Of a stretch of DNA of 32,000 nucleotides, positions 1,669-14,481 are shown piece by piece (positions within the stretch are counted from its first letter, which is position 1; each line of letters opens with the position of its first letter). The notes under the pieces were generated by a model that had not been told where the DNA came from, made no database searches, and saw only the letters and a program-made list of their open reading frames with translations. A program made the translations under genes and the position numbers. The DNA lies in NCBI GenBank assembly GCA_035387745.1, contig DAOOON010000001.1, forward strand, positions 31,952 through 63,951. Reading direction: 5' to 3'. The stretch comes from an archaeon (GTDB lineage: Archaea; Iainarchaeota; Iainarchaeia; Iainarchaeales; CSSED10-239).

Positions 1669-2529
1669 ATGAAAAATCAAAAATTAAAAGCAATCACTCC
1701 AATTGTTACAACTATTCTTTTAGTAGTAGTTGCTGTAATTCTTGTAACAATAGTCTTAAACTGGGGCAGAGTTTTTACTACTAGTTCTTTAAGTAAAACC
1801 CAAGGCATAGAGTTAACAAAATCTGATGCAGTTTCTTTTGTTTATCCAACTCAGTTAAAAGATGGCATAATACAATTTAATTATTCTCCGCCTTCTTCTG
1901 AGTCTTTTGGTGATATCATAATTACAAGTTATAAAGTATTATCTGATTCTGGCGAGACTCCAGACACTAATCTTTCTTCAAATTACACTTTAAAGCAAGG
2001 TTCAAATCTAATAGATCTAACAGGTTTTTCTTCTTTAGGTCTAGACTCTTCTTCAAAAGTCACGCTTGTTTTACAAACAACTGACAACACCTATCTAGAC
2101 ATAAAAAACATAACAAATTATTATGCAGTGCCTGTGCTTTTACCATATGTTTTAACAAATTCAGGAGACAAATTATATATTCATCCAAGTGATTCTCCAA
2201 CAGCCTTAACTTGGGCAGACGCAGGCCCATATTGTGAAAATTTAGACTCTAACGGTTATGACGATTGGTATCTTCCAAGCATGTCACAATTAGCAGATAT
2301 TTGGCTAGCTTGCCCTGATCAAACAAAATCGAACATTTGTATGAATAATAATATAAACAAAGATAATCTTCCATACACAGAAACCTGGGTTGATTTTATA
2401 GCAGACTATTATTGGTCAAGTACGGAGTGTGGGGCGGACGGCGCTTACGATATCGCTATGAACTATGGGGGCATCGGCATTAACGGTAAGGCCAAGGGCC
2501 TCTACGTGCGTTGTGTTCGTGACCAGTAG
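1669..2529 (+). CDS. DGR target protein: archaeal pilin-type N-terminus plus S/T-rich middle plus C-terminal DUF1566 / C-type-lectin-fold-like domain carrying the VR
   Basis: 286-aa ORF. The N-terminus MKNQKLKAITPIVTTILLVVVAVILVTIVLNWG resembles the archaeal type IV pilin N-terminal domain (short basic stretch, [KR]A[IV][ST]P[IV][IV], then about 20 hydrophobic residues). The C-terminal LTWADAGPYCENLDSNGYDDWYLPSMSQLADIW ... YWSSTE ... YVRCVRDQ matches the DUF1566 pattern seen in many DGR targets. The VR occupies the last 34 codons before Q-stop. Confidence 0.85.
   Translation: MKNQKLKAITPIVTTILLVVVAVILVTIVLNWGRVFTTSSLSKTQGIELTKSDAVSFVYPTQLKDGIIQFNYSPPSSESFGDIIITSYKVLSDSGETPDTNLSSNYTLKQGSNLIDLTGFSSLGLDSSSKVTLVLQTTDNTYLDIKNITNYYAVPVLLPYVLTNSGDKLYIHPSDSPTALTWADAGPYCENLDSNGYDDWYLPSMSQLADIWLACPDQTKSNICMNNNINKDNLPYTETWVDFIADYYWSSTECGADGAYDIAMNYGGIGINGKAKGLYVRCVRDQ
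2422..2523 (+). repeat. DGR variable repeat (VR)
   Basis: 102 nt align without gaps to 3189-3290, with 79/102 identical. 21 of the 23 differences lie where the other copy has A. The 3' 21 nt (2502-2522, ctacgtgcgttgtgttcgtga) are identical to TR 3269-3289 and are the IMH-like candidate. The VR ends 3 nt before the stop codon of the target (TAG 2527-2529). Confidence 0.9.
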
Positions 2530-2572
2530 TAACCAGGGGTTTTTGACAAGCCGTGGGCTTGGCAAAAGCCAT

Positions 2573-2595
2573 CAAGACATCCAGCGGATGTCTTG
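2573..2595 (+). promoter_or_regulatory. Perfect 10-bp hairpin with a 3-nt AGC loop downstream of the VR
   Basis: caagacatcc-agc-ggatgtcttg was read directly, and the arms are exact reverse complements. It is GC-enriched relative to its surroundings. A weaker 6-bp hairpin (caagcc-gtg-ggcttg) lies at 2547-2561. Confidence 0.8.
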
Positions 2596-2611
2596 TTTGT
2601 GATTGTCAGGC

Positions 2612-2640
2612 AAAGTCACAACCCAGCGGGTTGTGACTTT
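2612..2640 (+). promoter_or_regulatory. Perfect 13-bp hairpin with a 3-nt AGC loop, the second of a pair sharing the apex CCAGCGG
   Basis: aaagtcacaaccc-agc-gggttgtgacttt was read directly, and the arms are exact reverse complements. It is followed by a T/A-rich tract before the avd ATG at 2674. Confidence 0.8.
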
Positions 2641-2673
2641 GATATGTTTTGAAAAAAAAATTTGTGAATAAAA

Positions 2674-3036
2674 ATGGTTAGTTACGAAAACCTTGGAGTT
2701 TACAAGTCTTCTTTTGATCTTTGTGTGTATTTTGAAAAGATTGTTAAAAATTTTAATAAGGGCAATAAGTTTACAATTGGCGCAGATTTAAAAAATAAAT
2801 CGCGAGAGATTGCAATGCAAGTGGTTAGAGCAAATATATCAAGTACAAAAATAAAAGAAATTCAAGAGCTAATAATTTTAATTGAAGAACAAAAATTGAT
2901 AGTAAGATTGTGTCAAGAAACAAACGGCTTTCCTAATAAAAATTCATACGGATATATCTCAAAATTATTAACAAACCTTACAACCCAAGCCAATAACTGG
3001 CTATTATGCTCGCAAAAGCGAGAACAAACAGAGTAA
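2674..3036 (+). CDS. avd: Accessory variability determinant (Avd)-like four-helix-bundle protein
   Basis: 120-aa ORF between the target and TR/RT, the canonical avd position. Its size, predicted all-helical character and pattern (LGVYKSSFDL...VKNFNKGNKFTIGADLKNKSREIAMQVVRAN...W near the C-terminus) resemble the Avd / 23S-rRNA-IVS-protein family (PF05635-like). The call is from memory of the family, not a search. Confidence 0.75.
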   Translation: MVSYENLGVYKSSFDLCVYFEKIVKNFNKGNKFTIGADLKNKSREIAMQVVRANISSTKIKEIQELIILIEEQKLIVRLCQETNGFPNKNSYGYISKLLTNLTTQANNWLLCSQKREQTE

Positions 3037-3188
3037 AACCCGGAGTTGTAAATGTGAATAAAAGCAGTTTTACAAGCGCGGTTATTCATGGTGATGAAAG
3101 ACACCTAAACGGTAGTAAGTATTTTAATTAAGCTCTACTTTTTCTAAAAGATGAACTTTTTTAATAAAAGATCTTTCACAAAGGATGC

Positions 3189-3290
3189 ACGGAGTATGGG
3201 GCGGACAACGCTTACAATATCAATATGAACAATGGAAACATCAACAACAACAATAAGACCAATAACAACTACGTGCGTTGTGTTCGTGAA
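3189..3290 (+). repeat. DGR template repeat (TR)
   Basis: This is the adenine-rich copy (41 A in 102 nt; 13 AAY codons in the VR-equivalent frame) of the VR. It lies immediately upstream of, and overlaps, the RT ORF. The boundaries are where homology to the VR decays, and 2 further matching nt are possible at the 3' end. Confidence 0.9.
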
Positions 3291-4463
3291 CACGAATTTA
3301 CTTTTCAAGAACTTCATAAAGCATATATGACTTGTAGAAAAAATAAAAGAAATACAATCAATGCTTTAAAGTTTGAAGTTGATCTGGAAAGTAATTTACA
3401 AGAGTTGGTGTTTTGTTTAAATAACAAAACCTATAAGCCAACTCGCTCTGTTTGTTTTTCTATAACCGACCCAAAGCCACGCGAGGTTTTTGCTGCTGAT
3501 TTTAAAGATAGGGTAGTTCATCATCTTCTTTATAACCGTCTAAACCCAATTTATGAAAAAATATTTATCTATGATAGCTATGCTTGTAGAAAAAACAAAG
3601 GCACTTTAAACTCAGTAAAAAGAGCACAAACCTTTACAAGAAAGATTACAAACAATTCAAAAGAAAAAGCCTATTATCTACAACTAGATATTCATAATTT
3701 TTTTATGAGTATTGATAAAGATATTTTGTTTGGGATTGTAAGCCGCAAGATAAAAGACACAAGTTGGCTCTGGCTTACAAAACAGATAATCTATTACGAC
3801 CCAACCGAGAAATACTTACAGAAAGGTTCAGATTGGAAACAATCTGGTGTTCCTAAACACAAAACCTTATTTAACACTAAAAAAAACAAGGGCTTACCAA
3901 TAGGGAACCTTACAAGCCAGTTCTTTGCAAATGTCTATCTTAATGAATTAGATCAATATATTAAACATAAAATGAAAGTAAAATATTACATAAGATATGT
4001 AGATGATTTTATTATCTTCTCAAAATCAAGAAAAGAACTATTATCTATTAAAAAAGAAATAGAAACCTTTCTAAAAGAAAAGCTATCTTTAGTTCTAAAG
4101 CCCCTAACCATTCTAAAACCCATTTCCTCAGGCATAAACTTTGTAGGCTATATCATAAAATCAAACTATCTTTTGCCAAGAAATAGAGTAGTTAATAATA
4201 TATATAAAAAAATAAACCTTTTTAAGAAAGACAGTATTTATTTAGAAAACAAAGCTCTTGTTTATGATTTCAAAAATTCGGTATATTTTATAAAATCTAT
4301 AAATAGCTATTTTGGATATCTTAAACCATCCAAGCACAAAAATCTCCTAAAGGATATAAAGACAAAAAACCGTTTTTTAAATATTTTATTTATTTTTGAA
4401 AATCATAAGATCAAAAATAAATACCAGACAAATTTTATAAATTTAAAAATTAAGGCCGTTTAA
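3225..4463 (+). CDS. DGR-type reverse transcriptase
   Basis: 412-aa ORF. It has DPKPREVFAADFKDRVVHHLLYN (RT motifs 1-2), LPIGNLTSQFFANVYLNELD (IGNLTSQ at 3900-3920, the SQ signature typical of DGR RTs) and the catalytic YVDD at 3996-4007. The start is uncertain: the only in-frame ATG upstream of the conserved FTFQELHKAY block is 3225, which lies inside the TR. GTG at 3273 is an alternative. Confidence 0.9.
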   Translation: MNNGNINNNNKTNNNYVRCVREHEFTFQELHKAYMTCRKNKRNTINALKFEVDLESNLQELVFCLNNKTYKPTRSVCFSITDPKPREVFAADFKDRVVHHLLYNRLNPIYEKIFIYDSYACRKNKGTLNSVKRAQTFTRKITNNSKEKAYYLQLDIHNFFMSIDKDILFGIVSRKIKDTSWLWLTKQIIYYDPTEKYLQKGSDWKQSGVPKHKTLFNTKKNKGLPIGNLTSQFFANVYLNELDQYIKHKMKVKYYIRYVDDFIIFSKSRKELLSIKKEIETFLKEKLSLVLKPLTILKPISSGINFVGYIIKSNYLLPRNRVVNNIYKKINLFKKDSIYLENKALVYDFKNSVYFIKSINSYFGYLKPSKHKNLLKDIKTKNRFLNILFIFENHKIKNKYQTNFINLKIKAV

Positions 4464-4485
4464 CAAGCAACGCATATTCTCGTTT

Positions 4486-4512
4486 AAGCTTAGCTTTATT
4501 AAAGCTAAGCTT
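4486..4512 (+). terminator. 13-bp palindromic hairpin followed by a T-rich tract downstream of the RT
   Basis: aagcttagcttta-t-taaagctaagctt was read directly and is followed by tttat. It starts 23 nt after the RT stop. Archaeal termination mainly uses T-tracts, so its function is inferred. Confidence 0.35.
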
Positions 4513-4651: not shown

Positions 4652-5332
4652 ATGATAAACAACAACGACATAATTGAGTTAGATTTAATAATAAAAGATA
4701 AAAACACTAATTCCGTTCTTGATACAACCCACGAAGATGTAGCAAAAGAAGGCAACATCTATGATTCAAAAACACAATATAAACCTTTAGTGGTTGTCTT
4801 TGGTAAAGGCGAGTTACTTAAAGCCGTTGAAGAGAATATTAAGGATTTAGATATTGGAAAAACAAAAGAATTTTCTGTAACAAAAGATAAGGCCTTTGGA
4901 GATAGAGACCCAAAACTAATACAGTTACTTCCATTATCTGATTTTAAAAAAGAAAACATAGATCCAAAGCCAGGCATGTTTATAAATCTTGGTAATCGCC
5001 AAGCAAAGGTTCTAAATGTTTCTGGCGGAAGAGTGCAAATAGATCTTAACCACGAGTTTGCAGGTAGAGATTTAGATTACAAGATTACTTTAAAGAAAGT
5101 TTGTGCAAACGACAACGATAAGTCACAAGCATTATTTGAGAAGTATTTCTTTTTCATGCCAAAGGATAAGGCAAAAGTTCAAGTTAAAGAAAAAACTTTA
5201 GAGTTAATAATTCCTGGCGCGATGCCAAAGGAAATCGAATATTTAAAGTACATTTTCATACAGTCTGTTTTTGACACCTGTAATTTTGAAAACATACATT
5301 TTATAGAAAATTATGAGAAGAAAAAACAATAA
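4652..5332 (+). CDS. FKBP-type peptidyl-prolyl cis-trans isomerase (SlyD-like, with insert-in-flap domain)
   Basis: 226-aa ORF with AGGAG 7 nt upstream. It has an FKBP core pattern (VVVFGKGELLKAVEENIKDLDIGKTKEF ... NHEFAGRDLDYKITLKKV) with an inserted domain, as in archaeal long FKBPs. Confidence 0.8.
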   Translation: MINNNDIIELDLIIKDKNTNSVLDTTHEDVAKEGNIYDSKTQYKPLVVVFGKGELLKAVEENIKDLDIGKTKEFSVTKDKAFGDRDPKLIQLLPLSDFKKENIDPKPGMFINLGNRQAKVLNVSGGRVQIDLNHEFAGRDLDYKITLKKVCANDNDKSQALFEKYFFFMPKDKAKVQVKEKTLELIIPGAMPKEIEYLKYIFIQSVFDTCNFENIHFIENYEKKKQ

Positions 5333-5954
5333 AGGGGGCAGAGAGATTTTGGAAACATATAAGACCGGTACAACTACAGTTGCTATCTTAGCAAAGGATT
5401 CAATAGTGCTTGCAGCAGACATGCAGGCAACCATGGGTAATCTGCAATCAAATACTGAGATGACAAAGATTTATAAGATAAACGACCAACTAGCAGTAAC
5501 AATCGCAGGTTCAGTCGGAGACGCCTTAGTTTTAGTAAGGTTTCTAAAAGTCCAAGCTAGTCTTTTTGATCTAGAGCACAAAACTCCAATGACTCCAAAA
5601 GCTTGTGCAACCTTACTTTCAAATATCTTAAATGCTAACAAGATGATTCCGTATGTTACGCAATTTATTCTAGCTGGTTCAGTTGGTGGCTTAGCATTAT
5701 ATAACATTGATATTGCAGGAGGAATAGTAGAGGAAAAGGATTTCTCATATTCGGGTTCAGGCTCAGAACTAGCTTTGAGTGTTCTTGATAGCCATTACAA
5801 AAAAGGCCTAACCACAGAAGATGCAGTTAAACTTGCAAAAGACGCAATAACATCAGCAAAGAAAAGAGACATCTACACCGGTGGCCAAGGCATAAAAGTA
5901 GTGATTGTAAAAAAAGACCGCATAGAGGAACTGCCAATAACAAAATACAATTAA
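5313..5954 (+). CDS. psmB: Proteasome subunit beta
   Basis: 213-aa ORF. A propeptide is followed by G|TTTVAILAKDSIVLAADMQAT with the catalytic Thr1 context. The length is typical. It overlaps the FKBP 3' end by 20 nt. Confidence 0.9.
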   Translation: MRRKNNKGGREILETYKTGTTTVAILAKDSIVLAADMQATMGNLQSNTEMTKIYKINDQLAVTIAGSVGDALVLVRFLKVQASLFDLEHKTPMTPKACATLLSNILNANKMIPYVTQFILAGSVGGLALYNIDIAGGIVEEKDFSYSGSGSELALSVLDSHYKKGLTTEDAVKLAKDAITSAKKRDIYTGGQGIKVVIVKKDRIEELPITKYN

Positions 5955-12597: not shown

Positions 12598-12671
12598 CGG
12601 GTTTGGGAGGATTTGAACCCCCGTCAGCAGGTCCGAAGCCAGCTGCACTATCCAGGCTATGCTACAAACCC
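12598..12671 (-). tRNA. tRNA-Arg (anticodon TCG), no encoded CCA
   Basis: The reverse complement reads GGGTTTGTAGCATAGCCTGGATAGTGCAGCTGGCTTCGGACCTGCTGACGGGGGTTCAAATCCTCCCAAACCCG. It has a 7-bp acceptor stem GGGTTTG/CAAACCC, a D-arm GCAT/GTGC with the GG loop, anticodon loop CTTCGGA, T-arm GGGGG-TTCAAAT-CCTCC and discriminator G. There is one T-T mismatch in the anticodon stem. It was folded by eye. Confidence 0.8.
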
Positions 12672-14188: not shown

Positions 14189-14481
14189 TGAAATCAAAGG
14201 CTTTTATATTTAGTGTTACTGCGCTTTATTTTGTTATGTTGTTTGTTTTATTTATGGGTCTGATTACTTATACTTATCATAACGCAGTCTATAAGCAAAC
14301 AACCTCGGTGGTTGATAAAACAGCAAGTGATTATATTCAAGGAAATGATTCTACATCTATTCCAACAAATGGCTGGTGTGTAAGAAGAATAGTCTATGAT
14401 GCAAACACACAAAGCAGTACCCAATCTCCAAGAGAAATAAAAACATATTGTGAGGATTATGGCACGCAAAGGTTTATTTGA
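14188..14481 (+). CDS. Class III signal peptide-like small protein 3
   Basis: The preferred start is the ATG at 14188 (MKSKAFIFSVTALYFVMLFVLFMG), which overlaps the upstream TAA. The ORF track also allows an ATG at 14173. Confidence 0.55.
   Translation: MKSKAFIFSVTALYFVMLFVLFMGLITYTYHNAVYKQTTSVVDKTASDYIQGNDSTSIPTNGWCVRRIVYDANTQSSTQSPREIKTYCEDYGTQRFI

Follow-up and report, generated by a model that had tools for sequence, protein, structure and literature searches.

An archaeal diversity-generating retroelement with a putatively pilin-like target protein and three conserved hairpins downstream of its variable repeat

We describe a locus in a 32,000-nt stretch of archaeal DNA (the window; contig DAOOON010000001.1 of assembly GCA_035387745.1, positions 31,952 to 63,951), in which the gene of a target protein that ends in a variable repeat (VR) is followed by three hairpins, a homolog of the accessory variability determinant gene (avd), a template repeat (TR) and a reverse transcriptase (RT) gene (Table 1). 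Diversity-generating retroelements (DGRs), the systems to which these parts point, are well known for rewriting the tip of one surface protein. The composition of the cassette, the pattern of differences between its two repeats and the variation of the VR among near-identical genomes leave us with little doubt that the locus represents a complete chromosomal DGR of the clade found in DPANN archaea and bacteria of the Candidate Phyla Radiation (CPR), with the order target-(hairpins)-avd-TR-RT.

Table 1. Features of the retroelement locus, with positions in the window.
Feature	Position	Strand	Support or remark
(TA)8 tract, ~55 nt upstream of the target start codon	1599..1614	+	length varies among strains
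Target (variable protein) gene, 286 aa, acidic (isoelectric point, pI, 4.4)	1669..2529	+	open reading frame (ORF); pilin-like helix, beta-sandwich stalk, DUF1566/Lcl_C head with the VR at its end
Putative class III (type IV pilin/archaellin-like) signal and hydrophobic helix, KA/ITPIVTTILLVVVAVILVTIVLNWGRVF	1687..1791	+	agreeing sub-threshold matches
VR	2422..2525	+	last 34 codons of the target, minus the final Gln codon and the stop
VR 3' constant part (21 nt, equal to TR) and fixed VR-specific boundary GAC-CA; candidate site for the initiation of mutagenic homing (IMH)	2502..2525	+	alignment, relatives
Hairpin H1 (TTGACAAGCC-GTG-GGCTTGGCAA)	2543..2565	+	68/70 stem cells paired in 7 distinct relatives, compensatory changes; loop variable
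Hairpin H2 (CAAGACATCC-AGC-GGATGTCTTG)	2573..2595	+	69/70 cells paired; 3 clean double-sided stem changes; AGC loop invariant
Hairpin H3 (CAAAGTCACAACCC-AGC-GGGTTGTGACTTTG)	2611..2641	+	97/104 cells paired; AGC loop invariant
avd homolog, 120 aa, pI 9.15	2674..3036	+	sub-cut-off Avd profile matches
avd-TR spacer, predicted structured 5' part of the DGR RNA	3037..3188	+	covariation, 7 sequences
TR	3189..3292	+	41-42 adenines, 13 AAY codons (AAC or AAT); in frame with the RT ORF and partly within it
RT ORF of DGR type, 412 aa as called, start uncertain	3225..4463	+	RVT_1 E 1.6e-22; PDB 8ub7_A E 1.4e-35
Deletion scar: ~300 nt encoding a MutS_I-like C-terminal RT domain replaced by 48 nt	4447..4495	+	versus 3009..3309 of the syntenic ortholog L165

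The VR (2422-2523) and the TR (3189-3290) can be aligned over 102 nt without a gap, and 21 of their 23 mismatches fall on adenines of the TR (Fisher exact p = 1.2e-8). An earlier, sequence-only reading of this DNA had arrived at the same pair by hand, with 21 of 23 differences on TR adenines and two at the 61 remaining positions; the exact alignment and per-base mismatch table, now computed, reproduce these counts and establish the enrichment. Among the bases of the TR (A41/G21/C20/T20), 21 of the 41 adenines are thus changed, 15 of them to G, three to C and three to T, and the two non-adenine mismatches lie at TR 3248 (C>T, VR 2481) and TR 3263 (T>G, VR 2496). The former mismatch falls on a C/T polymorphism of the TR between strains, since the independent contig L001 (see below) carries T in its TR and C in its VR, the opposite of the window. 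A repeat finder, run independently, returned the same pair as the sole long direct repeat in the first 8 kb (104 nt, 2422-2525 and 3189-3292, 78%), and a search of both strands of all 32 kb with the TR adenines masked yielded no further VR.

The repeats might in principle be an ordinary paralogous or duplicated gene fragment that diverged by normal mutation, given that an A-rich copy could drift in a genome of 31% G+C and that the TR is in frame with the neighboring ORF. However, the mismatches sit on the adenines of one copy only, and these adenines have mostly changed to G, contrary to the AT bias of the genome. Four strains and a remote locus repeat this asymmetry, the A-rich copy being invariant among strains and the other hypervariable, and genes for a DGR-type RT and a homolog of Avd adjoin the pair. 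The computed tables refute this explanation, which retains a negligible probability.

The TR contains 13 AAC or AAT codons, and both this number and the translations of the two repeats given in the sequence-only reading were exactly recovered. Its estimate of 15^13 protein variants proves correct as a lower bound: were every TR adenine mutable, the codon-wise ceiling would be ~1e23 (4^41 variants at the DNA level). A stop can arise by mutation from one TR codon, AAG (3255-3257). A less straightforward case is the invariant 21-nt block close to the 3' ends of the repeats (VR 2502-2522, TR 3269-3289), which had been proposed as the IMH/IMH* region. Its identity in both copies is confirmed, but for this very reason the block alone cannot separate VR from TR. 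A distinction that is fixed in all relatives lies directly 3' of it, where the VR reads GAC-CAG and the TR GAA-CAC. Because the underlying difference between TR 3290 (A) and VR 2523 (C) is constant across all strains and relatives examined, we regard it as a mark of the VR/TR boundary, that is, of the 3' edge of the transferred segment, and not as a product of mutagenesis, which leaves 20 mutagenic differences in the pair of the window.

The adenine-specific pattern recurs in other strains, and in this respect, too, the earlier DGR reading is supported. The independent contig L001 encodes an RT identical to that of the window and agrees with the window over the 12.7 kb compared (up to a diverged end block), save in three places. 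One of them is the VR, with 21 differing positions, 18 of which are TR adenines; the others are 93 nt that immediately precede the VR and a segment from TR 3248 to 40 nt past the TR. Two further syntenic strains, L174 and L175, have targets that are 87% identical to the target of the window. When each VR allele is compared with its own TR, the 23 mismatches of the window (21 at adenines) are matched by 18 in L001 (16 at adenines), 19 in L174 (18) and 14 in L175 (13). Across the four alleles, 29 of the 42 columns with a TR adenine are variable, as opposed to 4 of the 62 other columns, and the same four strains differ at 0-3 positions in the TR versus 14-25 in the VR. The hypervariable positions are also the same in protein alignments of five more close homologs. 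The existence of four adenine-specific VR alleles together with a near-invariant TR therefore indicates recent mutagenic retrohoming.

Downstream of the VR, the interval between the stop codon of the target gene and avd is occupied by a module of three hairpins, which is kept in all relatives with an RT identity of at least ~60%. Across seven to eight distinct sequences, 97-99% of the stem cells are paired in H1 and H2 and 93% in H3, and in the relative L085 the stem of H3 is wholly different with its loop unchanged. Pairs were counted on loop-anchored arms; an alignment of the whole region with MAFFT had misaligned H1 and H3. The numbers of compensatory changes are inflated by register shifts in H1 and H3 and clean in H2. 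Several G-T wobbles on the plus strand hint that this strand may act in a single-stranded form, either as RNA or as DNA. Where the module belongs is indicated by a remote second target (locus L176), found ~150 kb away in the sister genome of L174, with no RT, avd or TR nearby. Its VR differs from the TR of that genome at 23 positions, 19 of which are adenines, and is followed by the same three hairpins (L176 5955-6090), which were found 3' of VRs only and not of the TR. Since the module thus also accompanies a target that lacks avd, it belongs to the target site and not to the leader of avd. In phage BPP-1, a stem-loop downstream of the VR is required, and both the structure of its stem and the sequence of its loop count (PMC3240598), and the DGRs of nanoarchaea have triloop hairpins beside their VR (PMC4372165). 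The three hairpins agree with both precedents, although their number, position and loop sequence differ.

The small basic product of the avd-like gene matches the Pfam family bAvd (E 1.3e-7, 32.5 bits, cut-off 40) over positions 9-104 of the 107 in the profile and the NCBIfam model DivGenRetAVD (E 7e-8, 32.7 bits, cut-off 80) over nearly its full length; a sequence search of the PDB with it gave no match. The spacer between avd and the TR is predicted to form three helices (3046-3052/3069-3075, 3096-3101/3172-3177 and 3124-3142/3146-3164). Eleven of its pairs are altered on both sides, compared with 4.3 +/- 1.5 in shuffled alignments (none of 500 reaches 11) and 0-2 in slid controls. The best covariation is seen in the second helix, in which GAAAGA/TCTTTC alternates with AGAAGA/TCTTCT. 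With only seven sequences available and the structure predicted from the same alignment, the support for it is moderate. A possible long-range pairing between 3079-3095 and the central part of the TR (3219-3235) is predicted with little covariation, a prediction of duplexes between the sequences upstream and downstream of the TR was uninformative, and an Rfam scan returned a tRNA at 12598-12671 as its sole match.

The RT carries the motifs IGNLTSQ (3900-3920) and YVDD (3996-4007). Among solved structures, its match to 8ub7_A (328 aa) far exceeds those to RTs of group II introns (1e-16) and of the retron type (1e-14), and in NCBIfam the group II intron, retron and Drt models match below threshold only. 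We take the 8ub7 protein to be the Bordetella phage RT (bRT) of the cryo-EM series in bioRxiv 10.1101/2023.10.23.563531, a link between entry and paper that we presume. Two start codons come into question, an ATG at 3225, which lies inside the TR and is conserved in relatives, and an ATG at 3327, which is absent from the sister strains. The RT ORFs of all close relatives extend in frame from the conserved ATG across two thirds of the TR (3225-3292), and the bases of the TR may consequently double as template and as coding sequence for the N-terminus of the RT, if this putative start is used.

At its other end, the RT is shortened. Its closest homologs comprise ~500 aa with a C-terminal extension, which in P0003 and P0004 matches Pfam MutS_I with 36-37 bits, and a MutS_I-like RT extension has been noted for three DGR RTs (Wu et al., PMC5758913). 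The RT of the window is without the corresponding domain of ~95 aa, which is carried by the syntenic ortholog L165 and most close homologs. A short RT (396-412 aa) is common to all four strains with their differing VR alleles. Diversification has therefore continued without the MutS_I-like domain, provided that the alleles were not all brought in by recombination.

The latter proviso leads to a different view of the locus, namely that it is a relic whose cassette is now inactive, for instance as a consequence of the loss of the MutS_I-like domain, and whose frozen VR alleles are shuffled by ordinary recombination. Several observations weigh in this direction or otherwise against an intact and active element. 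The RT lacks a domain that its nearest relatives possess, the Avd matches fall under the curated cut-offs, and each VR allele contains one or two non-adenine mismatches. In the region that follows the TR on its 3' side and corresponds to the Sp region of Bordetella, RNA structure is without covariation support: RNAalifold proposes stems with a single covarying pair, a low number that is explained by conservation, since this stretch codes for the start of the RT. One and the same VR allele is present in three assemblies (the window, L003 and L004), reflecting either slow turnover or re-assemblies of the same data, and one of them, L004, is otherwise 8.5% diverged. The strains are represented by metagenome consensus contigs, which are possibly chimeric, and the evidence for activity is indirect, coming from the VR alleles of assembled genomes and not from reads or cDNA.

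There are, in addition, clear signs of mosaicism around the cassette, which would fit a shuffling of frozen alleles. Two dimorphic patches, at 2329-2352 and 3293-3331, occur in one haplotype in the window and L175 and in another in L001 and L174, irrespective of relatedness. Since the haplotypes are shared with a diverged strain, these patches, upstream of the VR and downstream of the TR, are attributable to recombination or assembly mosaicism and not to the DGR. A second template as the source of the differences at 2329-2421 was considered and rejected, as the best match elsewhere in the window reaches only 52/108. Furthermore, the core of the DGR (hairpins, avd, TR and RT; 2526-4463) is far more conserved than the 5' half of the target (1669-2300) and the region 4652-5954. 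Compared with L175, the core of the window differs by 0-0.4%, versus 1.5% for the FKBP gene and 5-8% for the target N-terminus and the proteasome gene; compared with L174, the values are 1-7% for the core and 7-13% for the flanking genes. This contrast suggests that the cassette was recently exchanged between strains or swept. L004 (GCA_029566455.1, contig JAKQMI010000126.1) shows a mosaic of its own: its 8.5% divergence from the window applies to the 5' two-thirds of the target, and it is identical to the window over 300 nt (window 2314-2617) that include the VR and the hairpins, a pattern that recombination or a chimeric short contig could explain.

Nevertheless, the notion of a relic faces several difficulties. 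The truncated RT is found in all four strains with their different VRs, implying that, once the deletion had occurred, the alleles still arose or were kept. In the VRs of L001 and the window, 18 TR-adenine positions differ despite near identity over 12.7 kb. The genes for RT and Avd and the TR are intact, the catalytic motifs being in place, and the MutS_I-like extension is also absent from many functional-looking relatives and from the Bordetella RT. We thus consider an inactive relic unlikely and favor a complete DGR with recent mutagenic retrohoming.

The genes on either side of the locus are archaeal housekeeping genes, coding for FKBP26, a proteasome beta subunit, aCPSF1/FttA, diphthamide synthase, the CCA-adding enzyme, ABCE1, PCNA, LonB and PheRS, and the best named relatives of aCPSF1 are those of Candidatus Iainarchaeum (68%) and Diapherotrites (55-60%). 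Based on these flanks and relatives, we assign the DGR to the chromosome of a tiny archaeon of the DPANN type, and its host looks, as judged from sequence, like a member of an Iainarchaeota/Diapherotrites-like lineage. A virus or prophage that diversifies a receptor-binding protein, rather than a cell that diversifies a surface protein, would be an alternative owner of the element, given that the prototype and many other DGRs are phage-encoded and that a gene for an ATPase with AAA_14/DUF4143 domains lies upstream of the target. This scenario is very unlikely in view of the core archaeal housekeeping genes on the flanks, the synteny of the locus in four strains and a 73%-identity ortholog, and the N-terminus of the target, which is pilin-like and not of tail-fiber architecture. 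When a collection of viral contigs was searched with the H2 pattern, six matches were obtained, two of which, upon inspection, were GC-rich chance hits devoid of the module, and the other four failed a tighter H2 pattern. On a broader scale, a scan of an initial set of 85 sequences, made up of the window and 84 loci with homologous RTs, detected adenine-specific TR/VR pairs in 50, with the TR mostly abutting the RT gene, and the RT clade is common to loci from Woesearchaeota, Pacearchaeota, Nanoarchaeota, Iainarchaeum, Patescibacteria and Omnitrophota.

A few further observations concern the surroundings of the cassette. The ATPase gene (275-1534) is directly upstream of the target gene and syntenic in the sister strains. 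The TA tract between the two is two units longer in L174, and two independent contigs (L001 and L004) break there; it may form part of the promoter region. The near identity of L001 and the window over 12.7 kb gives way, at 14307-14463, to a block of sharp divergence (~92% identity, with indels), seemingly a part of an unannotated ORF that varies among strains.

The target protein appears to be modular. Its head corresponds to Pfam Lcl_C (aa 177-284, 48.5 bits, cut-off 34.9), and an identical protein is deposited in GenBank as 'DUF1566 domain-containing protein [archaeon]' (HOZ35396.1). An AlphaFold model (predicted local distance difference test score, pLDDT, 82.9) comprises a long N-terminal helix (aa 11-41), a beta-sandwich and an alpha/beta head. 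Searched with Foldseek, it matches the C-terminal domain of Legionella Lcl (8q4e_A, E 1.7e-5, template modeling score 0.68) and a pilus subunit of S. solfataricus (6w8x_A, E 8.6e-4). The N-terminus, KA/ITPIVTTILLVVVAVILVTIVLNW, is like the class III signals of archaeal pilins and archaellins, and several sub-threshold matches agree with this resemblance: TIGR02537 (16.5 bits, cut-off 20), the 'Flagellin' 8fk7_A in the PDB (E 0.019) and Pfam Pilin_N, which is matched over profile positions 1-23 with 14.1 bits by the target and with 14-17 bits by four relatives. The same N-terminus is seen in the targets of all close archaeal relatives. Targets of more distant relatives have a QG/TIEY motif, and one of these passes Pfam Class_IIIsignal (27.4 versus a cut-off of 23.7); several homologs are named 'flagellin-like protein' by JGI. 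Genes for pilus assembly (ATPase, platform protein or prepilin peptidase) are not present in the 32-kb window. The stalk also occurs in proteins with other heads (Hint, DUF5018 and FGE-sulfatase). Outside the TR homology, head residues 186-191, 221-228, 236 and 242-247 (window 2224-2409) vary among strains; they may be loops around the VR surface that are under ordinary diversifying selection.

By homology with the Bordetella phage system, mutagenesis can be envisaged as follows. An RNA that reaches from the structured avd-TR spacer across the TR into the 5' end of the RT gene would be bound by a complex of RT and Avd and reverse-transcribed, with random nucleotides inserted opposite the adenines of the template. 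The resulting cDNA would then take the place of the VR in the 3'-terminal part of the target gene, and the directionality of this transfer could be set by the VR-specific boundary GAC-CAG and by the three hairpins, present after VRs and not after the TR. As an outcome, the C-terminal face of the DUF1566/Lcl_C lectin-like head would be re-randomized at ~13-20 residues. If the N-terminus is indeed processed and displayed in the manner of a pilin, the product is likely a variable surface adhesin with a stalk like that of type IV pilins, by which a host-dependent archaeon would bind some ligand. In its fullest form, this picture holds that Iainarchaeota-like DPANN archaea use their DGR to diversify a modular type IV pilin in its lectin-like head, so that a variable adhesin is displayed on a pilus subunit, or anchored in the manner of one, for attachment to host cells, that the three-hairpin module with its two AGC triloops marks targets, including remote ones, for retrohoming, and that diversification can dispense with the MutS_I-like domain fused to the RT. 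We put this combination forward tentatively, as a possibility that falls somewhat short of being probable.

The prototypic DGR of phage BPP-1 (mtd-avd-TR-brt) shares with the archaeal locus the adenine-specific transfer from TR to VR, the position of the VR at the C-terminal end of the target, the order target-avd-TR-RT, a homologous RT, if 8ub7_A is indeed bRT, and a small basic protein, here Avd-like. Both also have stem-loops downstream of the VR, with a constrained loop and a stem that may vary in sequence (PMC3240598). However, the prototype resides in a phage and acts on the tail-fiber protein Mtd, whereas here the DGR belongs to a cellular archaeon and its target joins a DUF1566/Lcl_C head to a putatively pilin-like stalk. 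BPP-1 has one hairpin, located within the 24 bp directly downstream, in contrast to three in the window, which start 18 nt past the VR homology and include two AGC triloops. The two systems also differ around the TR, which in BPP-1 is followed by a free spacer of ~140 nt and here abuts and overlaps the RT ORF, with covarying RNA structure on its 5' side. The elements for priming and Avd binding, which in Bordetella lie 3' of the TR, would thus fall into a region that is conserved 5' coding sequence of the RT in the window.

Closer to home, the DGRs of DPANN archaea and CPR bacteria, which include the 'CPR set' of Wu et al. (2018), share the RT clade and comparable architectures, with avd-TR-RT and an upstream target corresponding to architecture B1 and a DUF1566-type VR to category 'd' (Wu et al., PMC5758913). 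Relatives in this group carry the MutS_I-like RT extension, which has been deleted in the lineage of the window. Targets of archaeal and CPR DGRs usually have no transmembrane domain, or conserved domain of another kind, that can be recognized (Roux et al., 2021, PMC8144416), whereas the target described here and those of its close archaeal relatives start with an archaeal pilin-type signal and helix, according to the sub-threshold matches. The DGRs of Nanoarchaeota (Paul et al., 2015, PMC4372165) resemble the present one in being archaeal and chromosomal and in having IMH/IMH* sites and, beside the VR, a hairpin whose loop is a trinucleotide, but their loops are of the type GRA and their hairpin lies inside the target ORF, whereas here the three hairpins are intergenic and have AGC (H2 and H3) or variable (H1) loops.

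A parallel to the head itself is found in the DGR of Legionella pneumophila, whose target LdtA is a surface-anchored protein with the VR in a DUF1566-type domain and an exposed, diversified C-terminus (PMC5758913); the predicted head in the window matches the fold of the C-terminal domain of Legionella Lcl. LdtA is an outer-membrane lipoprotein of a bacterium, in contrast to the putatively pilin-like anchor of the archaeal target, and Legionella has a separate gene for a MutS-like (MSL) protein, whereas the RTs of the clade to which the window belongs have the MutS_I-like module fused to them, with a loss of this module in the window. Modular type IV pilins, such as PilB of Streptococcus sanguinis (PMC8179133), and archaeal pilins (6w8x) are similar in having a pilin helix and a beta domain, with an extra C-terminal adhesive module. 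They differ from the target in that the head of the latter is hypermutated by a retroelement, and assembly of the target into a filament is a conjecture from sequence and model. No description of pilin-like archaeal DGR targets was found in the accessible literature, which leaves out the main 2017 paper on DPANN/CPR DGRs.

The DGR clade in question has already been catalogued in DPANN archaea and CPR bacteria, so that our core finding is confirmatory, adding one well-documented archaeal DGR to a family with thousands of catalogued members. The pilin-like target, the three-hairpin module and the loss of the MutS_I-like domain without a loss of diversification are useful details rather than surprises. 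Together, the four near-identical strains and the remote target constitute a natural experiment, in which the VR turns over after the MutS_I-like domain has been lost and the hairpins are tied to target sites and not to the template. If the target is truly pilin-like, the variable proteins of DPANN archaea would be placed at the cell surface on a pilin scaffold, which would fit a role in host attachment and bear on a question left by the global survey of these elements (PMC8144416).

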